Position numbers and translations under genes: made by a program. The notes beneath the pieces are model-generated. The model searched no databases, was not told the DNA's origin, and was given only the letters and a program-made list of their open reading frames with translations. Positions 29,912 through 41,573 of a stretch of DNA of 64,000 nt are shown piece by piece (the first letter of the stretch is position 1; the number at the start of each line of letters is the position of its first letter). The DNA comes from Promethearchaeota archaeon (GTDB taxonomy: Archaea > Asgardarchaeota > Lokiarchaeia > Sigyniarchaeales > SOKP01), in assembly GCA_048938895.1 (NCBI GenBank), contig JBHLLU010000016.1, forward strand, positions 16,998-80,997. The letters are read 5' to 3'.

Positions 29912-31003
29912 ATGGATATTTTATTAAAAATGGAATTTTTAAAAAATACAATTGGTATTAGTAATAAAAAGGGGCGCCCATATGGTCAAATCTCTTCAAA
30001 AGGAAATTATAAAGAGATGTTAATAGAATCTAAAAAGATTGTAAATGAACTCGCAAAGGAAGAAGGTGTAATTGGTATAACTTTATGTGGAGGCCTTAGT
30101 AGAGGATATGCTGATGATTTATCTGAAATAGATCTATTAGTGTTTTTAGAAGAAGAGATTTATGATAAATGGATTACTGGTATGGGTCCAATCCCTCATG
30201 GTGATGCATTATGGAGAGGGAATTATATAGATGTTGAATTTCTATCATATGAAATGGAAAAAACAGAAGATTGGGACTTAATTAAGAAGTGGGATGCTTC
30301 CTATAACTTAATTCTATTTGATCCTCAGGGAAAGATAGAGGCTTTATTTAAAGAGAAAGACATATTTAGTTCAAAGGAAAAATTTCAATGTATCTCAGAA
30401 TATTTTGGGAAGTGTGTGTATATTGGCAACGTAGTAATTGAACAATGGATTAAAAGAGGGGACCCTCTCGCAGCCAACCAATTGGTTAATAGCGGAATCT
30501 ACGGTTTAATAGGGTTAGTATTTCTAGCCAATGACGAATATCCTCCTTTTGAGAAATGGGCTTTGAACTATTCTTATTCTCTCAAATGGTTACCTAAAGA
30601 TTGGAAAAAAAGAATTTCTGAGATTCTTCTTACTAAAGAAATTACTATTAAGGAAGCTGAAAGAAGACATAGATTATTTATTGAGCTATACAAGGATTGC
30701 TGGGTAAAGGTCGTTGGTAAAGAGTTAAAAGATTTGGAATTTATTGACATTATCACTTTAAAAGAGTTACAATTCATAGTAGATAATTCTCCAGTACTTT
30801 TTGATAAATTTAGTGAGACATTTGATATAAAACACTTATCATATGAACCAATATATAAATTAACAAATATTATTACAAAAAAAGGGAAAAAATACATTAA
30901 TTTCAACCATGAAAAGTTCTTCGAACAAAAAAAAGATAATTTCCCCGATATCTTAGAGTGGAGTAAACCTTTACTTAATAAATTAAAATTATATAAAGAG
31001 TAA
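29912..31003 (+). CDS. Pol-beta-superfamily nucleotidyltransferase with DUF4037-like helical domain
   Basis: GITLCGGLSRGYADDLSEIDL, ILFDPQG, LANDEYPPFEKW. Confidence 0.75.
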   Translation: MDILLKMEFLKNTIGISNKKGRPYGQISSKGNYKEMLIESKKIVNELAKEEGVIGITLCGGLSRGYADDLSEIDLLVFLEEEIYDKWITGMGPIPHGDALWRGNYIDVEFLSYEMEKTEDWDLIKKWDASYNLILFDPQGKIEALFKEKDIFSSKEKFQCISEYFGKCVYIGNVVIEQWIKRGDPLAANQLVNSGIYGLIGLVFLANDEYPPFEKWALNYSYSLKWLPKDWKKRISEILLTKEITIKEAERRHRLFIELYKDCWVKVVGKELKDLEFIDIITLKELQFIVDNSPVLFDKFSETFDIKHLSYEPIYKLTNIITKKGKKYINFNHEKFFEQKKDNFPDILEWSKPLLNKLKLYKE

Positions 31004-31012
31004 CATGTAAAA

Positions 31013-33178
31013 TTGAATCAGAATAAAGAAAAGTCGAATGAGGAGTATGTTTTTGAGTTTTATGATGAAGACTACATTGAATCCTTAGAAGTAGAAGTAC
31101 CAAAAATAATAGAAGAATATAAACAAATTAATTTTGAAGATGATTTGAACGACGAACAACTTGAAATTATCAATAACATTAATGGCCCCATGCTTGTAAT
31201 TGCTGGTGCAGGAAGTGGTAAAACGAGAACAATAACTTATTCTGTAGCAAAACTATTATCATCAGGAGCAAGGCCTAGTGAAATTATGCTTGTCACTTTT
31301 ACCAATAAAGCCGCTAATGAAATGATAAGAAGAGTTGAAACTCTTTTAGGTAGACGCCCTAAGGGAATATGGGGTGGAACTTTTCATTCAATCGCTAACC
31401 GTTTTATAAGAATGTATGCAAAAACATTAGGATTAAAAGTGAATTACACAATAATGGATGAAACAGATGCGAAAGCATTAATAAAACTTTCAATTGAGAA
31501 AGCTAATGTGAAAGAAATCGAGGAACGCTTCCCTAATTCAAGAATGGCTAAATCGATATTATCCTACTCAATCAATTGTCATAAAACGATCCAAGAAGTC
31601 ATTCTATGGAAATATCCCCAATTTGATACTGAAGATGTGATTAAAAAATTAGAAGAAGTATTTAAAATCTATAAAGAAAAAAAGGCTCAAGAGAATTTAG
31701 TTGATTTTGATGATCTTTTGATTTATTGGAATCAATTATTGGACGAAAGATCTATAGCCCAGTTGATAGCAAGAAAAATAAAATATATACTTGTTGATGA
31801 ATATCAGGATACAAATTATATCCAAGATGAAATTATACATAAAATAGTAAATCAAAACCCAGATCAGAATGTTATAGCCGTTGGAGATGATGCTCAAAGT
31901 ATTTATGCGTTTCGTGGTGCTAACTTCCATAACATTTTAGATTTTGAAAAAAAATATAAAAATTGTAAGAGATATAGTATAACTTATAATTATAGAAGTG
32001 TACCTCAGATATTAGCTTTAGCAAACAATTCAATTCTTAATAATAAAAAACAATTTAAAAAATCAATGCGTGCTACTCGTCTTGAGGGGATATTACCTTT
32101 TCAAGTTAACGTAGGAGATGATAAAGAACAAGCTTATTTTATTGCCAATCAGATACTAAAATTACGCTCAGAAGGATATAAACTTGAAGAGATGGCTATC
32201 CTTGTTCGGGCTGGTTTTCATTCATTAAGAATAGAACTTGAATTAAAAGCAAAAAACATTCCATATGAAGTACGGGCAGGAGTAGCATTTTTTGAAAAAG
32301 CACATATCAAGGATATTATAGCTCATTTACGTATAATTGAAAATCCATATGATGAGATTTCATGGTCTCGGATTTTTTCTATTATCCAAGGTATCGGAAC
32401 TTCTTCAGGAACAAAAATATTTGAAGCTATATCCAAAACTGAATATCCGATTGATGCTTTAATAGATAAAATGTTTTATGCAGAAAAATTAAAAGGATCA
32501 AAAATATCTAAAGAGGGTATTAAAAATACAATTGCCTATGTTAAGAAACTTGTAGGCTTTTCCTCAGATGATATTCCATCTGAAGTTATTAATAAACTAA
32601 CTTTAATAATTCAAGATTATATTAAATCAAAGTATGATAATTGGCAAGATCGAATTGATGATCTTAACCAGTTGAGTATATATGCTAACAACTTTCTAAC
32701 CATTCAGAAATTCTTAGAAAATTTAAGTTTAAATTTATCAAATTTAGAATCTAAAGCTGTTGTTGCTGGAAATTCAGAAGAAGAAAAACCTTTAATTTTA
32801 TCTACAATACACCGAGCAAAAGGTCTTGAGTGGAGAGTAGTATTTATACCAATGTTGTGTGAAGATTATTTCCCCTCATCAAGAGTGAAAGGTGATTCTG
32901 AGGGACTTGAAGAAGAACGACGTGTTTTTTACGTAGCTATAACTCGAACTAAAGACCTTTTGTACCTTATATCTCCTTCAGTTATGAAAGGATTTCGAGG
33001 AGAACAGATAGTAAGAATCTCTCCCTTTATTTCTGAATTAAATCCTAAAGTATATAAAAAATCCTCAGTGTTTATTGGCCCTGTAAAAGAAAAGGGTAAA
33101 AAAAGTCCCAAAAACCTACAACAATCGCTCTTTCAAACTGCGGACGAATTATTTAAAAAAAAAAAAACAAAAAGATAA
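31013..33178 (+). CDS. uvrD: UvrD/PcrA-family SF1 DNA helicase
   Basis: AGAGSGKT, VTFTNKAA, LVDEYQD, VGDDAQSIYAFRGA, NYRS, STIHRAKGLEW, EERRVFYVAITR. Confidence 0.95.
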   Translation: MNQNKEKSNEEYVFEFYDEDYIESLEVEVPKIIEEYKQINFEDDLNDEQLEIINNINGPMLVIAGAGSGKTRTITYSVAKLLSSGARPSEIMLVTFTNKAANEMIRRVETLLGRRPKGIWGGTFHSIANRFIRMYAKTLGLKVNYTIMDETDAKALIKLSIEKANVKEIEERFPNSRMAKSILSYSINCHKTIQEVILWKYPQFDTEDVIKKLEEVFKIYKEKKAQENLVDFDDLLIYWNQLLDERSIAQLIARKIKYILVDEYQDTNYIQDEIIHKIVNQNPDQNVIAVGDDAQSIYAFRGANFHNILDFEKKYKNCKRYSITYNYRSVPQILALANNSILNNKKQFKKSMRATRLEGILPFQVNVGDDKEQAYFIANQILKLRSEGYKLEEMAILVRAGFHSLRIELELKAKNIPYEVRAGVAFFEKAHIKDIIAHLRIIENPYDEISWSRIFSIIQGIGTSSGTKIFEAISKTEYPIDALIDKMFYAEKLKGSKISKEGIKNTIAYVKKLVGFSSDDIPSEVINKLTLIIQDYIKSKYDNWQDRIDDLNQLSIYANNFLTIQKFLENLSLNLSNLESKAVVAGNSEEEKPLILSTIHRAKGLEWRVVFIPMLCEDYFPSSRVKGDSEGLEEERRVFYVAITRTKDLLYLISPSVMKGFRGEQIVRISPFISELNPKVYKKSSVFIGPVKEKGKKSPKNLQQSLFQTADELFKKKKTKR

Positions 33179-33275: not shown

Positions 33276-33968
33276 GTGTATATGGGAGAGAAGAAAAATT
33301 CAGGGAAGTCATTGATGGAATTTATTGAGTCTCATCAACAAGATGATACAATATCAGATGATCCTTTTATTAATAAGGATATTTCTAGATTAGTGGCTAT
33401 TCGGCTTTTTGATTTCAATTTCTTTTTTGATGTTGCTGAATTAGACAATATTACCAAAAAAGAATTAGCATATATCCTCGATGAAGCAAAATTGTTACCC
33501 GCAGCATTAGGAAACTATCATGGTGCTTATCCTGGAGGCCTATTTGACCATACTCTATTGGTAGTTAATTATTCTTACTACATTTGGAAAACTTTAAAAG
33601 ATCAATCTTGGCTTAGACAAGTTATTTTAACCGCAATATGCCATGATTTTGGTAAAATTCCATATTATGGGACTAAACTTAACCTAATAGATAGAAAAAT
33701 TAGTATCCCTCTTAATAAAACTGAGGTTATTCGTTCAGAAATTAAGGAGAGATTTAGAGTAACTGGGAAGGATAGGCATGTAGAAAACGCCATTGCCGTA
33801 ATTAAGAAATATATAAGTGCATATGACTTATTATTTGATGATGAGATGTATATTGGTTTAATTTTCCATCATGGTAGTTGGAGTAAATATATTCCACAAG
33901 AAATGAACGAATTGGCTTCTGTTATTCATGTAGCTGATATGATCGCGAGTCAAGTATTAAAAATCTAG
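33276..33968 (+). CDS. HD-domain phosphohydrolase (YhaM/TraI-like HD, no OB domain)
   Basis: YHGAYPGGLFDH, CHDFGK, FHHG, HVADMIAS. Confidence 0.8.
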   Translation: MYMGEKKNSGKSLMEFIESHQQDDTISDDPFINKDISRLVAIRLFDFNFFFDVAELDNITKKELAYILDEAKLLPAALGNYHGAYPGGLFDHTLLVVNYSYYIWKTLKDQSWLRQVILTAICHDFGKIPYYGTKLNLIDRKISIPLNKTEVIRSEIKERFRVTGKDRHVENAIAVIKKYISAYDLLFDDEMYIGLIFHHGSWSKYIPQEMNELASVIHVADMIASQVLKI

Positions 33969-34018
33969 AATAAATAATTATTTTCTCTCTTGAAATTCAA
34001 AAAAATTTACTGGTTTCA

Positions 34019-35374
34019 GTGAGTAAAGAAAATTCTGTTGTAGAAATAATAATTCAAGATCTTATCGCAAGATATAAAGAACTGATTATTGCGATTTATG
34101 GAATAGGAAGCTTTTTTGATGAAGAAATCCCAAGTTCATGGAAAAGAAAAGATATTGATATTATTGTAATTGTAGAAACATTAAAACCATTTCCTAAAGT
34201 AGATTGGACTGAAGCAAAATTCTTAAAAAGAAAAATAGAAGGAAAAGAAATTTGGATTGGTTTTAATACCTTAGAAGGATTTCAAAATAAAGAAATTTTT
34301 GAGATCCAATCTTTTTCTAATTATGAATGGAGTGTCTTAGATATTAAGTATCCTCAGAATTCTGTGTTATTATTTGGTCAAGATATTAGAAATCTATTAC
34401 CCAATAATAAGAGTTTGAAATTTGATTTTAATGATGTTTTAGCCAGAGGATTATATCATTTGGATAAAAGTTTAGGTGAAAGAGATCCAAATGATGCTAA
34501 GAATGAATTTTCTAAAGCAGTGTTTAAGATAAGCTTTTATCTTTGCAAATTTTTTAATCCTAATTTTAAAAATACAGGTATTCTACGTATCGGAGAAAAA
34601 TTGAAAGAAACATGTAGAGAAGTAAAGGAAATTAAAGAAATCGAACAATTTTTTGAAGAAACAATAGTTTTTAGGACTACTGGATATTATATCACTAAAT
34701 TTGAGAAACTTCGAGATAATTTTATCAAATTTGTTTTCTTCCTGTTAAAAAATGGAATTTTACATAAAATGATGCAATTTTCTGAGTTAAAAAACTATTT
34801 GGCTAGTTCTTTTAGCGGATTTCATCATCTAATTCAATTGATGAATAAATTCAAAACATCTAATGAATCAGATATAAGATTTACAAAACAAGATCAAGGT
34901 TTACATAGTATTAATATTATTGGAACTGTCACGAAAGTTGGAAGAATGCATAGTTTTACAAAAACAGATGGTTCAAAAATAAGTTATGCATCATTTATTG
35001 TAAGCGACGTGATTGGAGTTCTTCGTGTTGTAATATGGAATGATCAAGTGCGAATCAGACTATTTAATAACAAAAATTTTCAAAGGAATTCTAAAGTAGA
35101 AATTATAAATGGATATTTGAGAAAGGGATATGATGATAAAATAGAGATTCATATTGGGGATTCTAGTAATGTAATTGTACAAGAGATGCCCTTTAGTCCC
35201 GCTGGTAGTATAAAACTAGAAATAACTAAGCTTGATATTATGACACGCCTAAAGTATTTAAATATTAATGAAACAACAATTTCTAAAACTCCATGCCATC
35301 ATTGTGGTGGATTGTGTTCCCCTTCTGCAAAAATATGCCCAAAGTGTGGAGAACCATTAACTTTCAGATTTTAA
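34019..35374 (+). CDS. Nucleotidyltransferase + helical domain + RPA-type OB fold + Zn ribbon fusion
   Basis: YGIGSFF..DIDIIV; INIIGTV..SFTKTDGS..VSDVIGVLRVVIWN..IEIHIG; CHHC..CPKC. Confidence 0.75.
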   Translation: MSKENSVVEIIIQDLIARYKELIIAIYGIGSFFDEEIPSSWKRKDIDIIVIVETLKPFPKVDWTEAKFLKRKIEGKEIWIGFNTLEGFQNKEIFEIQSFSNYEWSVLDIKYPQNSVLLFGQDIRNLLPNNKSLKFDFNDVLARGLYHLDKSLGERDPNDAKNEFSKAVFKISFYLCKFFNPNFKNTGILRIGEKLKETCREVKEIKEIEQFFEETIVFRTTGYYITKFEKLRDNFIKFVFFLLKNGILHKMMQFSELKNYLASSFSGFHHLIQLMNKFKTSNESDIRFTKQDQGLHSINIIGTVTKVGRMHSFTKTDGSKISYASFIVSDVIGVLRVVIWNDQVRIRLFNNKNFQRNSKVEIINGYLRKGYDDKIEIHIGDSSNVIVQEMPFSPAGSIKLEITKLDIMTRLKYLNINETTISKTPCHHCGGLCSPSAKICPKCGEPLTFRF

Positions 35375-35435: not shown

Positions 35436-37523
35436 TTATGAGTTTAATTTTAATACTCTCGTTAAATGGTTTTCTTTTTTAAAATGAAAGATATCGGTTA
35501 CAAAAGAATCAAGGTTCCGTTCATGGGATATTATTATCATTTGAGATGTATTTAAATTTTCAAAAATAGATTGCATTCGATTTATTTGTTGTTGGCTAAA
35601 ACCATCCGTTGGTTCATCTAAGATCAAAAGATCTTTTGTTTTTACTTCCTGATATCTCTCATTGATTATTTTATTTAAAGCTAATCGATATGCTAGAGAA
35701 AGAGCACTTTTTTCCCCTCCAGATAAATCTTTAAATGGTGATTCATATCCGTTTACATGTATTATGGGTTGAAAGTCATCGGTCTTGATCTCAACTTCAA
35801 TATTTCTATCTTCAACTAATTCATGAAACCATTCCTTAAAATAAGAATTAAAATGATAAGCACTTGAGGATAGGATATTCTTCTCAATATCTCGAATTAG
35901 TATAGGAAATTCTTCAGCTATCCAATTTCTTAACTGTGAATAATAAGATAGATTATTCTCTAAGGTTTTTTTCACTACTATATTGGTATTTAATGAAACT
36001 AAATCTTTTTGTAAGTATTCCAACGCCTTTTTTTGTGCACTTGATTCATTTCCTAACATTTCTCTTTTTGAATTTAACTCTTTTAGAGATTTTTTTCTCT
36101 TATCGAGTTTAGATTTTAACTCATCTCCAAAAATTTTAAATTTTTGTAAAGAAGTATTATTAAATTCTGAGAGAATTCCAATTATCTCCTGTTGATTATT
36201 ATTTATTTCAATAAAAAATTCATTTATTCGATTTTCTAAGTCTGCTTTCCTTTTCCGTGTTTCTGAAATTAATGTATTTAGTGATTCTTTTTTATCTTTA
36301 ATTCTATGATATTCACGTAAATTCTTTAACAACTGTTTTTTTTCTTCAATGTTAAGAGTTTGGGTTCTAATTTCTTTTGTAAGCAGTTCAAACTTTGATC
36401 TAGCATCCTGTAATTCCTCCTCAAATCTTTCTTTCTCATGAATTGCTTGTCCACATAAAGCACACTTTCCATCTTCTAATAATTTATCAATATCTGCTAA
36501 AATCTTTTCGATAACGGCTTTTTCTTTTTCTTTTTGAGATTTTAGATTTTGTATTATCTCCATTTGAGATTCTAATTCATCTTCGTTAGATTTTGTGTTT
36601 GGTTTGACTTCCTTTAAGTTTTTTAATTCTTCTTCCCTTTCAAAAATCTCATTTTTAATTTCATTTAGAGAAGACTTACTTTTCAGTTGTTTCCCCTTAT
36701 TTTTTTTAATAGTTTTTTCTTTATTTTCGATTTGATTTAAGTTTTTAATATAGTTATCCAATTCTTTTTGAATTCCTTCGATAGAGTTTTCATGAGAGGC
36801 TATTAATTCTCCTTTTTCTTTAATTTCAGTTTCTTTTTTGTTAATATTCTTTTTTGTTTCTTCTATTTCTTTTTCTTTTAGAAGTATTTCTTCTTCAGGT
36901 TCGCCAATTTGTTTAATTTTAATCTGGATTTCTTTTACTATATCATTTAAAAACTCCTTGATGGTTTCTGCGTTTCTTAAAGCGATTTCATATTTTTCAA
37001 TGCCGAAAACTTCCTTTAATATCTCAAAACGATCATCTGGATCTGCTTGAATAATATCCTTTATCTGTTCTTGAGGTGTATAGACAGTATACCTGAACAA
37101 GGGTAATTTTGTTGCTTTTTCATAACGCGATACAGAATATGAAAGTAATTCCAGAATTTTCCGTCTCATATCAGTAGGAGCATAAGTTGTTGTTGTTCCT
37201 TTATTGTGATCTACAAATTTACATTCCTTTTGAGAAACTCTGCCCTTTTTATCTTTAAATAAGCTACGTTTAATTGAAAATTTCTTACCTTCAATTGAAA
37301 AAGTTAAATTTACAGAAGCTTTAGTTTTACCCCTTCTTAACAAAGAATCCCCACTTAAGTCTCCATGAATTAAGGTGCCAAATAATGCGAACTCTATTGA
37401 TTTTAAAACTGAAGATTTACCACTTCCTACATCTCCAAAAAATAGTAGAGTTGATGAGGGAAATTCAATAGCCTCGCTTTGAATACTCCGTATATTTTTT
37501 ATTTCAATAGATTCTAATATCAT
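35436..37523 (-). CDS. rad50: Rad50 DNA double-strand break repair ATPase
   Basis: Walker A GDVGSGKSS, Q-loop, coiled coil with CALC Zn hook, LSGGE, LILDEPT, ISH. Confidence 0.93.
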   Translation of the reverse strand: MILESIEIKNIRSIQSEAIEFPSSTLLFFGDVGSGKSSVLKSIEFALFGTLIHGDLSGDSLLRRGKTKASVNLTFSIEGKKFSIKRSLFKDKKGRVSQKECKFVDHNKGTTTTYAPTDMRRKILELLSYSVSRYEKATKLPLFRYTVYTPQEQIKDIIQADPDDRFEILKEVFGIEKYEIALRNAETIKEFLNDIVKEIQIKIKQIGEPEEEILLKEKEIEETKKNINKKETEIKEKGELIASHENSIEGIQKELDNYIKNLNQIENKEKTIKKNKGKQLKSKSSLNEIKNEIFEREEELKNLKEVKPNTKSNEDELESQMEIIQNLKSQKEKEKAVIEKILADIDKLLEDGKCALCGQAIHEKERFEEELQDARSKFELLTKEIRTQTLNIEEKKQLLKNLREYHRIKDKKESLNTLISETRKRKADLENRINEFFIEINNNQQEIIGILSEFNNTSLQKFKIFGDELKSKLDKRKKSLKELNSKREMLGNESSAQKKALEYLQKDLVSLNTNIVVKKTLENNLSYYSQLRNWIAEEFPILIRDIEKNILSSSAYHFNSYFKEWFHELVEDRNIEVEIKTDDFQPIIHVNGYESPFKDLSGGEKSALSLAYRLALNKIINERYQEVKTKDLLILDEPTDGFSQQQINRMQSIFENLNTSQMIIISHERNLDSFVTDIFHFKKENHLTRVLKLNS

Positions 37524-38818
37524 ATCTCAGACTCCTTAATTTTTTGAATTTCAAATATCCTTAGGAAAGACTGCTTTAAGGTTTCATTGTAATTCATGAC
37601 TTTTGATCCAACCTGCCTTTCTTCTCCTAGGGTTGTCAAAAGTTGATGTATTTTTTTTTCTAATTCATTCGGTGTAAATTTTTTTATTTTTACTTTATTG
37701 GCATGCTCCTTTATAATTGTGAACTCAATTTCTTCATTAGATTTACCTGTCGAAACACTAATCGCTTGATATTCCATTGTTGTTAAAGCATGTTTATTGA
37801 TTAAGACTTCATAAGCATCTTTAGACCTAAAATTCTGAATAATTTCATGATTTTTTATATCATAAGTTTTTCCTGATGTTAAAGCCCCATATAAACGGAT
37901 TGTAACTATTTTGTCTTTAACATCTCTATTTGATAGTTCGTGCTTTAATTTATTTAGCACTTCAGGAACTGTAATATTTGTACAATCAACAATTATGTTT
38001 TCTATATCAATGATTTTGATTGGTTTGAATTTCACATTCAAGTCTAATTTATCCCCTACAATATCACCTGAAACAAGACAAAATCCTCCATATTTAATTT
38101 TTTCAATTTCTCTGAAATTCGTAGGAAAAACAAAACCTGGATATATTACATTATTTTTGTCATTGATTTGTAGTACCACTCTATCTGCCCTCAATTTATC
38201 TGGAACTAATTTATGGAGATGACCTCCGGCATAATAATCAAAATTTTGAGGTAATAAAGATTTTGGAGCAGATTCCATGTCTTTAAATTCTTTAGGTTTT
38301 AATTCACTTAACATTGTATGGAGAATGAAGATTTTCGGTCCTTTTTCAACTTCTAAGCTTTCTCGATCCAGTTCTTGATATTCTTCAATCTCTAAACTCC
38401 GTTTTCTTGCTCTTAAACCTGCTATTTTAATGTGGGTTTTTGGATCTAAGATAAAATTTAATTTTATTTTATTATCATCTGTAAGCTCTGGAAGCCAAGC
38501 ATCTATAAATAAGCCTGCTGTAATTAATGGTCTAATCATAGACTTGTTTGAAGGAGAAAAGTCATGAGAACCCATTATCCCATATAACGGAATTTCAAGA
38601 TCCTTTAATCTCTTTAATAATTTTGTTGCTAAGTCGATTACCTCGACTTTTGGATTGCTTACATCATAAAGATCACCACTAAGGATAACAAAATCCACTT
38701 CCTCCTCAATAATGTTGTTAACTACTTCTTCAAAGGCTTTATATCCTAATTCATTTATTCGTTCATTTCGCCATGCTCCCAAATGAACATCGGAAATGTG
38801 TGCGAATTTGATTTTCAT
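37520..38818 (-). CDS. mre11: Mre11 nuclease
   Basis: HISDVHLG, SGDLYD, GSHD, GGHLH; overlaps the rad50 start by 4 nt. Confidence 0.92.
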   Translation of the reverse strand: MKIKFAHISDVHLGAWRNERINELGYKAFEEVVNNIIEEEVDFVILSGDLYDVSNPKVEVIDLATKLLKRLKDLEIPLYGIMGSHDFSPSNKSMIRPLITAGLFIDAWLPELTDDNKIKLNFILDPKTHIKIAGLRARKRSLEIEEYQELDRESLEVEKGPKIFILHTMLSELKPKEFKDMESAPKSLLPQNFDYYAGGHLHKLVPDKLRADRVVLQINDKNNVIYPGFVFPTNFREIEKIKYGGFCLVSGDIVGDKLDLNVKFKPIKIIDIENIIVDCTNITVPEVLNKLKHELSNRDVKDKIVTIRLYGALTSGKTYDIKNHEIIQNFRSKDAYEVLINKHALTTMEYQAISVSTGKSNEEIEFTIIKEHANKVKIKKFTPNELEKKIHQLLTTLGEERQVGSKVMNYNETLKQSFLRIFEIQKIKESEI

Positions 38819-38839
38819 ATCTTACACTTATTATATATT

Positions 38840-40423
38840 TTAATTTATTCCGGGAAATGCTTTTCGAATCTTTTTATCTGATTGTTGATTATCTGTTTTA
38901 CCTTTTAGTAAATCATCAAATAAAGGAATCTTAATTGGAATTGCAAATTTAGTAAAATTTGAGGTAACAATGGCTTCACCAATATCTAAGCTAGCAATTG
39001 CCTGGCTATCATCAGAGAGATCTTGAGCTGAGCTTTCTATTAAGGTTCGTCTTTCAGGACCCATTTCATTACCCAATATTATTTTAGTGTTCATATTAGC
39101 TAATATTTCGCGGGGAATTAAGCTTGGTAACTGAGTTAATGCGATTAATCCGATTTTGAATTTTCTTCCTTCCCGTGCTATTTTTCCAAAAACATTTTCT
39201 CCCGCTTCTAACACTTTTTGACCAATAACTCTTGGAGCTTCTTCCAGGACAATTGTTACTACTGGTTTGTCTAGTAATTTGTCTTCATATTTTAAATTCT
39301 TATATTTTTTAAATAATCCATCAACAATAATCGTTGCTATAAATATTTCTTCAGAGCTACTAAATAATGAAGTGTCAATGATAACTGTTTTTCCTTCCAT
39401 CAAAAAGTTTATAATAGAATCAATTGTAGTTTCATGTGTATTAAGAGTGTATATACCCCTTTCTCTGATTACTTTCCCTGCTTCATCTGTCTCAATATCC
39501 AATAGAAGGGATAGTCTTCTTCTTATTACCGATATTGTTACGTCTTGAATACCATTAGGAACTTCTAATGTTTCGTCGAACACTTTTTCGATCCAAAGTT
39601 TTTGATATTTTTTGTAGTAGGTATATAGAGCATCTTTTTGAGGTGGACTAAAACTCAGAGTTCCTACTACATGTGAAGGATATAAACTTTTAATGTTAAA
39701 TTTAAGATCTAATTTCCCGGGGATATTTCTAATTGTAAAATACTTCAAATAATCTGAGTTTTTTGGATGATCTTTAAGTCCTTTTTGACTAAGAGTTCCA
39801 TAATATTCATTATGAGGATCAAATATGAGTTTCCCACATTCATCATTTTCCATTAAGTTATATAAGATTGTTTTTACTAAATTTGATTTTCCTCTTCCTG
39901 TAGTAGCTGGAATTAAAACATGGTGACTTAATACTTTATCTGCCTCAAGTGACACTTCTGTTTTGAGTACTTTAGAACCAGAACGAATCTTTCCCAAGGG
40001 AATGGGATTTTCGATTTTCTCCTCTTTGAAAAATTCAAGATGGTTATCATCAATATCAAAAACATCTAATAAAAAGTCAGGTAATCGTTTAGGAAGGAAT
40101 AGTTTATTTTCTTTAACATATATTAAAGGTCTTGCTAGAGCTAATACATAATTTCTTAATTCAGGTTCATAAACTTTCAAATCTGTTCTGTCTCTTTCTA
40201 ACCCATAACCTGCCATCAATTCAAGAACGTTATCTGGAATCTGACTACCATAAAAAAGATCCTTAATTTGATAAATACTGTATTCTTTTCGGTTTTTCCC
40301 TGCGATAAAGAGTTGTCCTAACTCGAAATCTTGGTCTGATTTCTGTCTTAATATTAATTTAACCAAAGAAGTACCAGTAACAAAACTTCCAATTTTTTTT
40401 CCTAGATCAACCATTTTTCTCAA
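38840..40423 (-). CDS. herA: HerA bipolar helicase/translocase
   Basis: HHVLIPATTGRGKS, DPHNEY, VLEEAP, IAREGRKF, TQLP; operon context. Confidence 0.92.
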   Translation of the reverse strand: MRKMVDLGKKIGSFVTGTSLVKLILRQKSDQDFELGQLFIAGKNRKEYSIYQIKDLFYGSQIPDNVLELMAGYGLERDRTDLKVYEPELRNYVLALARPLIYVKENKLFLPKRLPDFLLDVFDIDDNHLEFFKEEKIENPIPLGKIRSGSKVLKTEVSLEADKVLSHHVLIPATTGRGKSNLVKTILYNLMENDECGKLIFDPHNEYYGTLSQKGLKDHPKNSDYLKYFTIRNIPGKLDLKFNIKSLYPSHVVGTLSFSPPQKDALYTYYKKYQKLWIEKVFDETLEVPNGIQDVTISVIRRRLSLLLDIETDEAGKVIRERGIYTLNTHETTIDSIINFLMEGKTVIIDTSLFSSSEEIFIATIIVDGLFKKYKNLKYEDKLLDKPVVTIVLEEAPRVIGQKVLEAGENVFGKIAREGRKFKIGLIALTQLPSLIPREILANMNTKIILGNEMGPERRTLIESSAQDLSDDSQAIASLDIGEAIVTSNFTKFAIPIKIPLFDDLLKGKTDNQQSDKKIRKAFPGIN

Positions 40424-40436
40424 TATAGTCTTTAAT

Positions 40437-41573
40437 TTACCTTCTAATCACATTTAATAAATCATGTGCATTAATAGATCGAAGACGGGGTAAAATAAAT
40501 TTATGATAATCCTCTTGATTAAATTCTGCTATCAATTGGATCTTTTGAGGTTCAAGTTCCTTAATACTAATCGCAGCGAGTTGATCTGTTTTAATTAGTC
40601 CGTAAGGATATCCTGGATAAGAAAGATCATTAGAATTATTTGCCAAATTGGATATTATAGTCTCACATTCGTTTTCAGACATCTGATTTGCTTGCTTTAA
40701 TAAGATATCAAATCTAAAAGAATAAAATGAGTTTTTATGTAATTTTACGAAATATAAATCAGCTTGCTCCTGAGCTTTTGTGATTCGATAGATAGGATGA
40801 TAATACCAAGGACTATCTGGAAATTTTTTATTACATATGTAATGAATGAGCGAATTTAATGAATTGCCCGTTTGCGTTATTAATCTGCATGTTTTAGAGA
40901 GTCCCGTTGCTATTACATCCTTTTTAATTGCAGTTTTATATAAGTTATCAGCTAGTTCTGTCTCACCAGTATAACCGGATTGAAGAGAACCATCTCTAAC
41001 AAAAATACTTCCTTCATCCAGCTCTTTCAAGATGAATTTAGTAGCATATGTCCATTCGGCAAATCTCATGGCAATTCCCCCAAAAACTTCCATGTTTGGT
41101 AAGCGAGATCCTTTTTCTCTAATAGTTGGATCATTAATTGGGAACTTTATTTCATCTTTAGGTAGATATTCTGAGAACCTAGATTCTGTTGGGAAAAAGT
41201 GAGTAATATAACCTAATGAATCATCCTTGAGAGTATCTAAGACCGTAGCACTATAAAATTCAATTTTTGTTGGTGTTTCAATAGGTTCAGTTAAAGAATT
41301 CTTCGAAAATATAACACCTGCTACACGATTCAAACTGATATTAAAATCAGGACTTCTTAAAATTGGTCCATTTCCACCATCTACAAATCCAATGGTCCTA
41401 ACATCAATATCTTTACATTTAGGGATTTCGAATATTTTTTCTTCTTGAATTTCATAAGTTTCATCTTCAGGATCTATAGAAAAAGGCTTGTCATCTTTTA
41501 AAAATCCCAATTTACGTTTTTCTATAAAATCAACACACTCTTTCAAAGGGCTTTGTCTTTTATCAGCGCACAT
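40437..41573 (-). CDS. nurA: NurA 5'-3' nuclease
   Basis: FVDGG, RDGSL, GLSKT, GYPYGL; first gene of the nurA-herA-mre11-rad50 operon. Confidence 0.88.
   Translation of the reverse strand: MCADKRQSPLKECVDFIEKRKLGFLKDDKPFSIDPEDETYEIQEEKIFEIPKCKDIDVRTIGFVDGGNGPILRSPDFNISLNRVAGVIFSKNSLTEPIETPTKIEFYSATVLDTLKDDSLGYITHFFPTESRFSEYLPKDEIKFPINDPTIREKGSRLPNMEVFGGIAMRFAEWTYATKFILKELDEGSIFVRDGSLQSGYTGETELADNLYKTAIKKDVIATGLSKTCRLITQTGNSLNSLIHYICNKKFPDSPWYYHPIYRITKAQEQADLYFVKLHKNSFYSFRFDILLKQANQMSENECETIISNLANNSNDLSYPGYPYGLIKTDQLAAISIKELEPQKIQLIAEFNQEDYHKFILPRLRSINAHDLLNVIRR

Follow-up and report, generated by a model that had tools for sequence, protein, structure and literature searches.

A nucleotidyltransferase fused to an RPA-type OB fold and its YhaM-like HD partner in Asgard archaea: a possible ssDNA tailing and trimming pair

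Described relatives and the locus

A pol-beta nucleotidyltransferase (NTase) core followed by a HEPN-like helical domain makes up the two-domain fold of the aminoglycoside adenylyltransferases AadA / ANT(3'')(9) and ANT(9) (6FZB, 5G4A, 6XXQ, 7UY4) and of ANT(4')/KNTase (1KNY, 6P01). The E87Q mutant of AadA is unable to adenylate, and AadA without its catalytic base only hydrolyses ATP (PMC6065190). The same class of fold is found in HalB, from the bacterial anti-phage system Hailong (9DBH, 9DBJ). According to an extract of a review (PMC13434031), HalB makes tyrosine-primed, template-free poly-dA, and the degradation of this product by a nuclease switches the system. Within the scope of that extract, HalB is a precedent for an enzyme of this fold whose ssDNA product is later removed by a nuclease. 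Among HD enzymes, the OB-HD protein YhaM, a 3'-deoxyribonuclease / 3'-exoribonuclease of Bacillota (9H3F), is presented in an excerpt of PMC12107432 as an ssDNA 3'-deoxyribonuclease.

We analysed a window of 64,000 nucleotides from a Promethearchaeota archaeon of the Lokiarchaeia (contig JBHLLU010000016.1, assembly GCA_048938895.1), which holds two adjacent genes with likenesses to these systems. The upstream ORF (33276..33968, +) encodes a short-form HD phosphohydrolase, without OB or SWIM domain. Its product has 230 aa counted from a GTG; the database cluster begins at the ATG at 33282 (228 aa), which is likely the true start. After 50 nt comes the second ORF (34019..35374, +), whose 451-aa product fuses an NTase, a HEPN-like helical domain, an RPA-type OB fold, and a zinc ribbon (hereafter NTase-OB). 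Our literature search found no published description of this NTase/OB/ribbon architecture. A UvrD-type SF1 helicase gene (31013..33178, +; Pfam UvrD-helicase 1e-74, UvrD_C 1e-52) ends 97 nt upstream of the HD gene, and the ORFs of a Rad50-Mre11-HerA-NurA operon (35436..41573, -) converge on the 3' end of the NTase-OB gene. Homologues in dozens of contigs, at 36-79% identity, indicate by sequence comparison that both genes are real and under constraint. The ORFs and the domain layout given in the original prediction (NTase, helical domain, RPA/SSB-type OB fold, CxxC ribbon) agree with the coordinates and motifs found here.

Domain composition of NTase-OB

The NTase core (residues 1-130; 34019..34408, +) was delimited by predicted secondary structure, conservation, and fold match. 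In the model of the whole protein (pLDDT 84.1), it consists of a helix (6-22), two strands (23-29 and 45-52), a hairpin (68-84) that includes N83, and a further strand (115-120). The motif G28-I-G30-S31 closes strand 23-29 and D45-I-D47 opens strand 45-52. Hence, both signatures of the pol-beta superfamily are present: the hG[GS] motif (G28 and G30 in 131/131 distinct members, S31 in 130/131) and, on strand 2, the metal-binding pair [DE]x[DE] (D45 in 130/131, D47 in 131/131). The conservation of GS, D45, D47, K166, K170, and R219 in 130-131 of the 131 members argues for a working nucleotide-Mg site. The second, all-helical domain (residues 135-282; 34421..34864, +; model helices 137-282) is HEPN-like, as in ANT enzymes. 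Its near-invariant residues among the 131 members are R143, Y146 (130/131), H147, K166, K170, R219, and H249, and its residues 135-252 match the HEPN protein AF_0298 (2hsb_A) with Z 10.7 over 111/126 residues. The HEPN RNase motif is Rx4-6H. We considered R143-x3-H147 as such a motif and dropped it, its spacing being one residue short and its position being in the first helix of the domain.

Over residues 1-266, the predicted structure has the fold of the pol-beta superfamily, with Z 10-13.8 to ANT(4'), ANT(9), AadA, and HalB. The AadA/ANT(9) structures give Z scores of 13.8, 13.7, 13.1, and 13.1 (212-220 residues aligned), with AadA 6fzb_B as the best match (Z 13.8, 217 residues aligned) and AAD(9) at 13.1; Foldseek returns ANT(4') at 9e-6 and AAD(9) at 1.2e-5. 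HalB follows with Z 11.6 and 188-196 of 217-220 residues aligned (9dbh_A: rmsd 4.5, 192/217; 9dbj_A: Foldseek 3.3e-5, TMt 0.58). NTase-OB differs from HalB by its first helix, OB fold, and ribbon, which HalB lacks, and profile searches of the PDB detected no sequence similarity between HalB and the NTase family. The near-invariant Y146 may correspond to the tyrosine from which HalB primes its product.

Residues 1-280 have no Pfam match, including NTP_transf_2 and Polbeta; the Polbeta model is matched by 8 of 31 family members (best E 0.016), and the cut-off of NTP_transf_2 is reached only by the distant member P0287. Protein Atlas gives NTP_transf_2/Polbeta-type clusters at 0.90, at the level of a lead only. 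The NTase profile (A2) retrieved only chance matches from PDB sequences, e.g. myosin and carbonic anhydrase, and with a broader profile (A4) the best matches, KNTase (E 0.073) and AAD(9) (E 0.62), were both sub-threshold. The hhalign comparison of A2 with a profile of 17 AadA homologues (A6) has a probability of 2.7% over 43 columns and aligns only the GS...DxD stretch, pairing it with G35-S36 and D47/D49 of AadA; A6 is a shallow template because its members are 65-100% identical. The single AadA1 sequence likewise aligned in the GS...DxD stretch only. In contrast to AadA, the family does not match the AadA_C model (PF13427). A search for PF13427 in the source genome gave no match, which carries no information, as control genomes were equally blank. 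The same kind of comparison with the family of NT363, the other NTase of the locus, encoded upstream (A5), found nothing (probability 0.4%), and the two NTases are not detectably related.

A difference at the putative active site concerns the catalytic base. E87 of AadA is invariant in A6, whereas the NTase family has no conserved equivalent: none of the strands after DxD (68-73 and 76-84) carries a conserved acidic residue among the 131 members. N83 is present in 117 of them and its position is acidic in none, nor in the distant members. The stretch that best matches E87, residues 78-85 (IWIGFNTL), an equivalence taken from aligned ranges and not from coordinates, contains no acid, and its columns are non-acidic throughout the family. 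Candidates for a third carboxylate lie elsewhere (D108, acidic in 94% of the members; D139, 92%; D136, 91%; D122 and E103, 89%). Given the failure of AadA E87Q to adenylate, the lack of a conserved acid after DxD means that transferase activity is not assured. Of the carboxylate triad on which the original prediction had made the activity of the NTase depend, the DxD pair is intact, as is the GS motif, but no conserved third carboxylate follows DxD.

The OB fold (residues 295-390; 34901..35188, +) is of the RPA type. It matches the NCBIfam model of replication factor A (E 1.4e-11 over residues 289-384), the first OB fold of the RPA of the same genome (34% identity, E 7e-18), and RPA chains in the PDB (2k50 at 2.4e-5, 8aas at 5e-5). 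The predicted structure concurs (Z 12.3-13.3 to RPA structures; 8aa9 with Foldseek at 2.8e-8). The C-terminal CxxC...CxxC zinc ribbon (residues 423-447; 35285..35359, +) has weak Pfam matches (DZR 0.0016, Zn_ribbon_3 0.011) and a pLDDT of 62-76, and its cysteines are conserved in 13/13 full-length OB-fused rows of the family alignment (A1). An RPA-type OB fold followed by a zinc ribbon recalls archaeal RPA (P. abyssi 8AA9 and 8AAJ, M. thermautotrophicus 2K50). However, NTase-OB has a single OB fold appended to an enzyme and scores 44 bits against the RPA cut-off of 362, so that the full architecture is not reached. These comparisons mark its OB fold as a borrowed, RPA-derived domain and not as an RPA orthologue. 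The OB fold and ribbon also set NTase-OB apart from the AadA/ANT enzymes.

The HD partner, its pairing, and its genomic context

The HD protein (Pfam HD, E 4e-5) carries the motif YHGAYPGGLFDH, in which the original prediction had recognised the HGxYxGGLxDH signature of YhaM. Its binuclear motif consists of H92, H123-D124, H198-H199, and D221, and mirrors the spacing of H163 / H193-D194 / H250-H251 / D274 in YhaM as described in the extract of PMC12107432; the residues invariant in the family alignment (A3) are H82, D91, H92, H123, D124, H168, H198, H218, and D221. The model is all-helical (pLDDT 89.5) and the Pfam matches of the family are of HD type only (HD in 28/28 members, TraI_2 in 23/28, Cas3_HD in 20/28), i.e., we found no OB domain in this protein. 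The nearest solved structure is YhaM (9h3f_A; Z 13.9, rmsd 3.5, 162/212 residues aligned), by a clear margin of 3.9 Z units over the next best (Z 10.0), and YhaM is also on top of the Foldseek search (E 2e-3). Fold and model thus bear out the early description of a YhaM-like HD protein without OB. The differences are the missing N-terminal OB fold, about 70 additional N-terminal residues, and a sequence homology that is not significant (profile A3 against PDB YhaM, E 0.87). The HD protein also matches phrog_5889 (7.6e-15).

The NTase family comprises 104 clusters among 1.84 billion representatives; of the 120 homologues of the NTase-OB gene listed, 31 cover at least 96% of its length. Unlike the AadA/ANT enzymes, it is confined to one Asgard family, where it was found in 21 of the 301 sampled Asgard genomes. 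In this sample it is multi-copy and patchy, with many remnants and in-frame stops, and the genome of NTase-OB itself contains a 104-aa remnant. The partners are nucleases, as opposed to antibiotic-resistance contexts. Other members are fused to a Cas4-like N-terminus (PADLOC Cas4, 7e-6), SNase, RNase_T, or Exo5, and RNase_H_2 and NYN genes are neighbours at further loci. In some fusions, the NTase is preceded by a membrane segment and an SNase of extracellular appearance, an arrangement hard to reconcile with DNA-end repair. We found no match for NTase-OB in PADLOC and PHROGs, and no relative of the family in viral contigs.

The short-form HD gene adjoins the NTase in 12 of 41 genome loci. In metagenomes, an NTase lies beside the short HD in 13 of 24 short-HD loci, and in 8 of the 12 loci whose flanks extend for at least about 1 kb to each side. 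All four gene orders occur (HD>NT, NT>HD, convergent, and divergent), and two loci (L031 and L124) encode single NTase-HD proteins of 511 aa. The divergences of the two proteins are correlated (Mantel r 0.864 for 22 pairs, a value reached by 0/2000 permutations). In the HD tree, the NTase-adjacent proteins are basal, and the derived clade of SWIM-HD loci is without NTase in 21/21 cases. The adjacency, the four orientations, the two fusions, and the correlated divergence support a functional coupling of HD and NTase, as had been proposed for this locus. The predicted complex of the NTase domain (A2) and the HD protein (A3) scored 0.21 against a mark of 0.32, which counts neither for nor against binding.

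Linkage of the two genes is nevertheless incomplete. In genus g4, the NTase occurs in 9/27 genomes and the HD in 1/27; among the 19 genomes of the 301-genome Asgard sample with a near-full NTase, the HD is adjacent in only 3; and 13 of the 41 NTase loci lie in a housekeeping block by TFE and RpoB, without HD. The original prediction was to be refuted if the genes were unlinked elsewhere: they are so in many genomes, as in g4 and at the SWIM-HD loci, but elsewhere they recur as a pair. Furthermore, the OB fold is present in no more than 4 of the 26 HD-linked NTases, and at 5 of the 8 OB-fused loci an HD gene is missing inside 10 kb. OB fusion and HD pairing vary independently.

As for the repair genes, UvrD belongs to a CxxCxxCC-Mrr-orf97-NT363-UvrD block whose synteny extends to relatives without the pair. 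In two of these (G177 and G323), UvrD runs directly into NurA-HerA-Mre11-Rad50, in the same direction and with no pair between. The pair flanks this operon in the source locus and in L004, L005, and L008, on either side, and the Rad50-Mre11-HerA-NurA orthologues of these three loci are 71-93% identical. At L039, the pair lies beside an SF1 helicase and Mre11-like and SMC/Rad50-like genes. Most NTase loci lack a repair context. The pair looks, from these gene orders, like a two-gene insert between UvrD and the Mre11-Rad50-HerA-NurA operon, and the placement is local to one sublineage, so it does not characterise the family as a whole. The DNA-repair locus of the original prediction describes this window, with UvrD upstream and rad50 converging, and its sublineage, but not the relatives at large. 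LmuB and MkoA matches of the neighbours at L039 and L021 were considered as signs of a defence island and dropped as unspecific: the housekeeping Rad50 next to NTase-OB matches the same LmuB model equally well (1.4e-30).

Possible roles of the pair

Given their recurrence side by side or within a single polypeptide, the two proteins probably act together, on ssDNA by our prediction. Our preferred reading, a tentative one whose chances we put somewhat short of even, is that of a lineage-restricted module for tailing and trimming ssDNA 3' ends. The OB-ribbon module would keep the enzyme on ssDNA, while the NTase would add nucleotides, template-free, to a hydroxyl, either at a DNA 3' end or on a protein tyrosine serving as primer for a DNA tail, as in HalB. 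The HD enzyme would take off such additions or trim the 3' end, as YhaM does. Given the insertion between UvrD and Mre11-Rad50-HerA-NurA, resected or unwound DNA ends would be the most likely substrate in this genome. The earlier idea of a writer/eraser pair on ssDNA gains a more concrete form from the structural likeness to HalB, which makes poly-dA independently of a template. Overall, the domain reading, the type of HD protein, and the coupling have held up; the split-YhaM alternative is weak, the repair locus is confined to one sublineage, and linkage is partial. Several observations weigh against tailing and trimming: the nearest structural enzymes modify small molecules and not DNA, the sequence link to AadA is undetectable beyond GS...DxD, the acid after DxD is not conserved, HD pairing is not universal and is independent of OB fusion, and a repair context is absent from most loci.

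The likeness to HalB also lends itself to a Hailong-like module for conflict or defence, which we hold to be rather unlikely. The NTase would constitutively make a signal, in the form of short DNA or of a nucleotide, and retain it on its own OB fold; the HD enzyme or a nuclease of an invader would destroy it, and its loss or gain would trigger a response in which the nuclease domains of other members are the effectors. HalB is indeed among the nearest folds (Z 11.6; TMt 0.58), and the review extract has its product degraded to switch the system. Patchiness and multiple copies in 21/301 genomes of one family, frequent remnants and in-frame stops (one remnant, of 104 aa, in this very genome), variable nuclease fusions, and the behaviour of the pair as a two-gene insert would also suit such a module. 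However, the locus has no HalA-type membrane effector, the adjoining genes being HD, UvrD, and Rad50; PADLOC gives no match for NTase-OB, viral contigs hold no relative, part of the family lies in stable housekeeping synteny, and the LmuB-like matches near L039 and L021 are unspecific. One may alternatively see a split YhaM-like exonuclease, with the HD protein as sole catalyst and the NTase fold, having lost its transferase chemistry, as a nucleotide-binding regulator or scaffold that brings ssDNA via OB and ribbon. The HD protein is YhaM-like yet lacks the OB that its partner has, a third conserved carboxylate was not found, and AadA without its base only hydrolyses ATP (PMC6065190). Against these points stand the nucleotide-Mg site kept in 130-131/131 members, the OB fold on only 4/26 HD-linked NTases and its descent from RPA (34% identity to that of the genome) and not from YhaM, and the NTases without HD of genus g4. 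The proposal that the OB is supplied in trans, an alternative in the original prediction, is weak in this light, and we judge the split exonuclease to be unlikely.

The best fold matches, at Z 13.1-13.8, are aminoglycoside adenylyltransferases, and KNTase is the best sub-threshold sequence match (E 0.073), which would fit an ANT-like adenylyltransferase acting on a small molecule or a protein hydroxyl. GlnD and the bacterial CCA enzymes have an NTase domain followed by an HD domain, and the L031 and L124 fusions resemble them in this order; by analogy, the HD protein would remove the nucleotidyl group as in GlnD, and the part of OB and ribbon would be limited to localisation or regulation. We find this quite improbable, considering that the proteins fused to the NTase or encoded next to it are overwhelmingly enzymes of nucleic acids, along with an ssDNA-binding module, that the HD protein is nearest to a DNA exonuclease and not to small-molecule HDs, that AadA_C is unmatched, and that the AadA base is not conserved. 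Finally, the adjacency could be accidental and the functions of HD and NTase unrelated, since many genomes have one gene and not the other and contexts vary. This is hardly credible: it is already disfavoured by a gene fusion of one kind that arose twice independently, and the side-by-side placement persists through four gene orders, NTases occur at 0/21 SWIM-HD and 13/24 short-HD loci, and the divergences are correlated.

Returning to tailing and trimming, a more specific version would make the pair a self-contained ssDNA writer/eraser of Loki-type Asgard archaea, with an AadA/HalB-fold writer that builds template-free tails on a DNA 3' end or a protein tyrosine and holds them by its own RPA-derived OB fold, and a YhaM-like HD eraser that removes them, wired in this lineage to Mre11-Rad50 end resection. 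We regard this version as doubtful; if it is true, Hailong-type DNA synthesis would have its first counterpart in archaea, and broken DNA ends would be marked or protected in a new way. Should the NTase tail ssDNA, template-independent DNA synthesis by ANT/HalB-fold enzymes would extend from bacterial phage defence to archaea near the eukaryotic stem, and this chemistry would be linked to ssDNA binding, 3' trimming, and possibly double-strand-break processing. The pair is a small two-protein system that can be tested. Even while its function is not established, the NTase family illustrates modular evolution cleanly: a single core is joined to an OB fold plus ribbon in some members and to Cas4-like, SNase, RNase T, or HD modules in others.

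Domains and active sites of the two proteins

In the window, which belongs to a Loki-type (Promethearchaeota) Asgard genome with a G+C content of about 30%, the gene of a 230-aa HD protein (33276-33968) is followed after 50 nt by that of a 451-aa nucleotidyltransferase with an OB fold, NTase-OB (34019-35374). Both are on the forward strand, as are the upstream genes of the 363-aa nucleotidyltransferase NT363 (NTP_transf_2 and DUF4037; 29912-31003) and of UvrD (31013-33178), and a Rad50-Mre11-HerA-NurA operon on the reverse strand converges on the NTase-OB gene. In its database version, the HD protein starts at an ATG six bases inside the window ORF start. The original prediction presented the two proteins as a writer/eraser pair at a DNA-repair locus, and the motifs it quoted for them are present in the sequence. 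NT363, whose gene ends 9 nt before UvrD, has in-frame stops in 5 of 12 near-full copies and is reduced to remnants in three genomes; hhalign found no relationship between it and the NTase-OB family.

Pfam gave no match within residues 1-280 of NTase-OB, and NCBIfam RPA models matched residues 289-384 (E 1.4e-11). In the AlphaFold model (34 homologues as input, mean pLDDT 84.1), an alpha/beta core formed by helix 6-22 and strands 23-29, 45-52, 68-73, 76-84, and 115-120 precedes a helical domain at residues 137-282; a disordered linker then leads to an OB barrel (297-387) and a short ribbon (423-447). In fold searches, the OB retrieved proteins of the RPA and SSB type (8aa9, Foldseek 2.8e-8; Z 12.3-13.3), and it shares 34% identity (E 7e-18) with the first OB in the 574-aa RPA of the same genome. 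Residues 1-250 match two-domain aminoglycoside adenylyltransferases: AadA (6fzb_B, Z 13.8, 217 residues aligned), 5g4a (Z 13.7), AAD(9) and ANT(3'')(9) (both 13.1), and ANT(4') (10.0). The same part aligns with HalB, the template-free poly-dA synthase of Hailong (9dbh/9dbj), with Z 11.6 over 192-196 of about 217 residues (Foldseek 3.3e-5, TMt 0.58), and the helical domain alone matches the HEPN protein 2hsb (Z 10.7). The NTase part has the fold common to AadA and HalB, but it falls outside AadA in sequence, in AadA_C, and in the catalytic base, and the partner of HalB is missing beside NTase-OB. A full-text literature search retrieved no paper describing the combination of NTase, RPA OB, and ribbon or its pairing with an HD protein.

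We analyzed site conservation in 131 distinct members of the NTase family (relatives of the nucleotidyltransferase and helical parts) spanning residues 15-255. G28, G30, S31, D45, D47, W104, G120, R143, Y146, K166, K170, and R219 are conserved in 130-131 of them, and hhalign places the GS and DxD motifs on G35-S36 and D47/D49 of AadA. Since these residues are nearly invariant, the nucleotide-Mg site of the family looks intact at the sequence level. According to an excerpt of PMC6065190, AadA binds two Mg ions through D47, D49, and E87, the latter being the essential base. E87 is invariant across the AadA alignment, and its equivalent is expected within residues 78-85 (IWIGFNTL), as judged from aligned ranges, not coordinates. 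No member has an acid at N83 (0/131, with Asn in 117), nor do distant members. Other acids are conserved without being invariant: D108 (94%), D139 (92%), D136 (91%), D122 and E103 (both 89%). Hence, of the complete carboxylate triad on which the original prediction depended, the DxD pair is kept, whereas a third carboxylate is not identifiable by conservation or aligned ranges. In the first helix of the HEPN-like domain, R143-G-L-Y146-H147 (nt 34445-34459) is near-invariant, its numbered residues occurring in 130, 130, and 127 of the 131 members; by analogy with HalB, Y146 is a speculative candidate for an acceptor or priming residue.

The 28 aligned HD proteins all match Pfam HD, 23 also match TraI_2, the HD model of MobH relaxases, and 20 match Cas3_HD. 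Residues H92, H123-D124, H198 (adjoined by H199), and D221 are invariant, with the spacing of the binuclear site of YhaM (H163, H193-D194, H250-H251, D274). The model consists of helices only (pLDDT 89.5), and its best match among solved structures, by a margin, is YhaM (9h3f_A, Z 13.9, rmsd 3.5, 162 of 212 aligned), followed by a match of Z 10.0 and by Cas3-HD at 7.3. The Foldseek match to YhaM is modest (E 2e-3), and the HD profile does not match the YhaM sequence significantly (E 0.87). YhaM is described in an excerpt of PMC12107432 as an ssDNA-specific 3'-deoxyribonuclease whose OB domain is required for substrate binding. The HD protein shares its fold and motif but lacks this OB.

Linkage and genomic setting of the pair

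The HD gene adjoins the NTase gene in 12 of the 41 loci of species-representative genomes. In our sample of 301 Asgard genomes, the pair is adjacent in only 3 of the 19 genomes with a near-full NTase (the window's own, G135, and G282). Asgard-type HD loci on metagenome contigs (n=45) comprise 24 short forms, like that of the window, and 21 331-aa forms with a putative N-terminal SWIM-like segment (CxC...CxH, recognized by eye). An NTase lies beside 13 of the short forms (8 of the 12 with at least about 1 kb on both flanks), none of the 21 SWIM forms, and none of 35 more distant HD genes. The pair occurs in every arrangement (HD>NT, NT>HD, convergent, divergent), and in L031 and L124 as a single 511-aa NTase-HD protein. 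Distances between HD proteins correlate with those between NTases (22 pairs, Mantel r 0.864, 0 of 2000 permutations as high), to which shared species history contributes. We conclude that the NTase and the short HD protein truly form a functional pair.

The predicted co-occurrence is thus borne out by adjacency, fusions, and correlated distances, but not by genus g4, where 9 of 27 genomes have the NTase and one the HD gene, or by the SWIM forms, found without NTase. The latter include the HD copies of genus g1 (HD in 19 of 22 genomes, NTase in 7) and are part of a housekeeping block that also holds thioredoxin, methyltransferase, Ras-like GTPase, and acyl-CoA dehydrogenases (L048-L054, L095-L129). 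In a tree built by a quick method, they form one derived clade nested among NTase-adjacent short forms. The pairing is probably ancestral for the HD family, and either partner is able to persist alone. Two more distant short HD genes (L126, L127; 35-36% identity) have no NTase beside them and are embedded among numerous small genes of the same direction, in arrays that may be mobile or viral elements.

A CxxCxxCC-Mrr-orf97-NT363-UvrD block is syntenic in 13 of 30 sampled genomes of the genus, some without the NTase family. UvrD is followed by a contiguous, co-directional NurA-HerA-Mre11-Rad50 operon in G177 (L083) and G323 (L088), and by a different HerA-like gene in four others. The window, L004, and L005 have this operon in inverted orientation, with the pair at its junction with UvrD, whereas in L008 the pair lies at the opposite end of the Mre11-Rad50 operon. 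Hence, the pair behaves as a two-gene insert kept beside the operon through rearrangement. Elsewhere, a Cas4-NTase and HD pair is divergent from an SF1 helicase, a Mre11-like phosphoesterase, and an SMC/Rad50-like ATPase (L039), and L021 carries an SMC-like ATPase, with genes for MoxR and VWA proteins upstream. The DNA-repair setting holds for the four loci beside Mre11-Rad50, but most other NTase loci have unrelated neighbours; a link to repair is suggestive for the window's sublineage only.

Possible functions of the pair

We observed the folds, an intact-looking nucleotide-metal site, a complete binuclear site in the HD protein, an OB derived from RPA, and coupling by adjacency and fusion; from this anatomy we infer the chemistry of the two proteins. 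The most economical reading, which we hold tentatively, is a module for tailing and trimming ssDNA 3' ends: the NTase would extend the ends and the HD protein would then trim them. This reading is suggested by the partners of the NTase core (enzymes acting on nucleic acids or an ssDNA-binding module in nearly every case), by the fold kinship with HalB, and by the HD protein being closest to an ssDNA 3' exonuclease. In an excerpt of PMC13434031, HalB synthesizes ssDNA without template and a nuclease then removes the product.

The kinship with HalB could also indicate a Hailong-like conflict system, but with HalB's partner missing we find this rather unlikely. Alternatively, NTase-OB might supply the OB of a split YhaM while its NTase fold is non-catalytic; the elusive third carboxylate would fit such an arrangement, the near-invariant nucleotide-Mg site would not, and we regard it as unlikely. 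A role like that of ANT or GlnD, modifying a small molecule or a protein, would agree with the adenylyltransferase fold, yet it sits poorly with the nucleic-acid partners and seems quite improbable. Chance adjacency of the two genes, compatible with the solitary copies but hardly with the fusions, is very improbable.

Extent and architectures of the NTase family

A word-indexed search returned 155 relatives of NTase-OB; among the 120 listed, 31 cover its full length and the others are about 295 aa long, without OB. Among 1.84 billion representatives, a profile built on residues 1-280 matched only 104 proteins (E <= 1e-3). The family occurs in 21 of the 301 sampled genomes, all of one GTDB family (the window's own and 20 of 68 others), and is absent from the 232 sampled genomes of 29 other Asgard families. 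The labels Odin-, Thor-, and Hodarchaeota given to relatives by submitters are unsupported by this sample. Several copies are remnants or bear stops. One, of 104 aa, is the remnant of a second copy in the window's genome (contig C90, L047 1486-1800, reverse strand), 64% identical over residues 4-99 and with unrelated residues at its end.

Besides the OB and HD fusions, the NTase is fused to Cas4/Exo5-like, SNase-CARDB-membrane, RNase_T, and TFIIB-cyclin partners (the latter C-terminal). In the NTase tree, OB fusions fall in four separate clades, each with OB-less sisters, and HD adjacency in at least five. The SNase fusions (L013 8558-10822; L060 6279-8267; P0051, P0202, P0242) have a signal-like N-terminus, SNase, sometimes CARDB, a hydrophobic segment, and the NTase. 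They are apparently extracellular nucleases tethered to a cytoplasmic NTase, which none of the readings offered accounts for. In L036 (4809-7045), the genes of a 261-aa stand-alone nuclease (Exo5/Cas4-like), an ArsR-type regulator, an NTase fragment of 110 aa, and an NTase of 265 aa lie in succession, in what looks like an unfused counterpart of the Cas4-NTase architecture.

TFE-alpha and RpoB adjoin 13 of the 41 NTase loci. A 295-aa paralogue without OB or HD (L017, L019, L020, L022, L023, L025-L027, L029, L030, L033, L035, L042) is flanked by a 260-aa protein and TFE-alpha on one side and by an Ost5-like small membrane protein and RpoB on the other; in this block, the family may serve a housekeeping function. 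Two contigs assigned to genomes of Patescibacteria and Nanopelagicaceae (L037, L042) also carry Asgard-type copies, that of L042 together with the whole Asgard TFE/RpoB block; both contigs are probably mis-binned.
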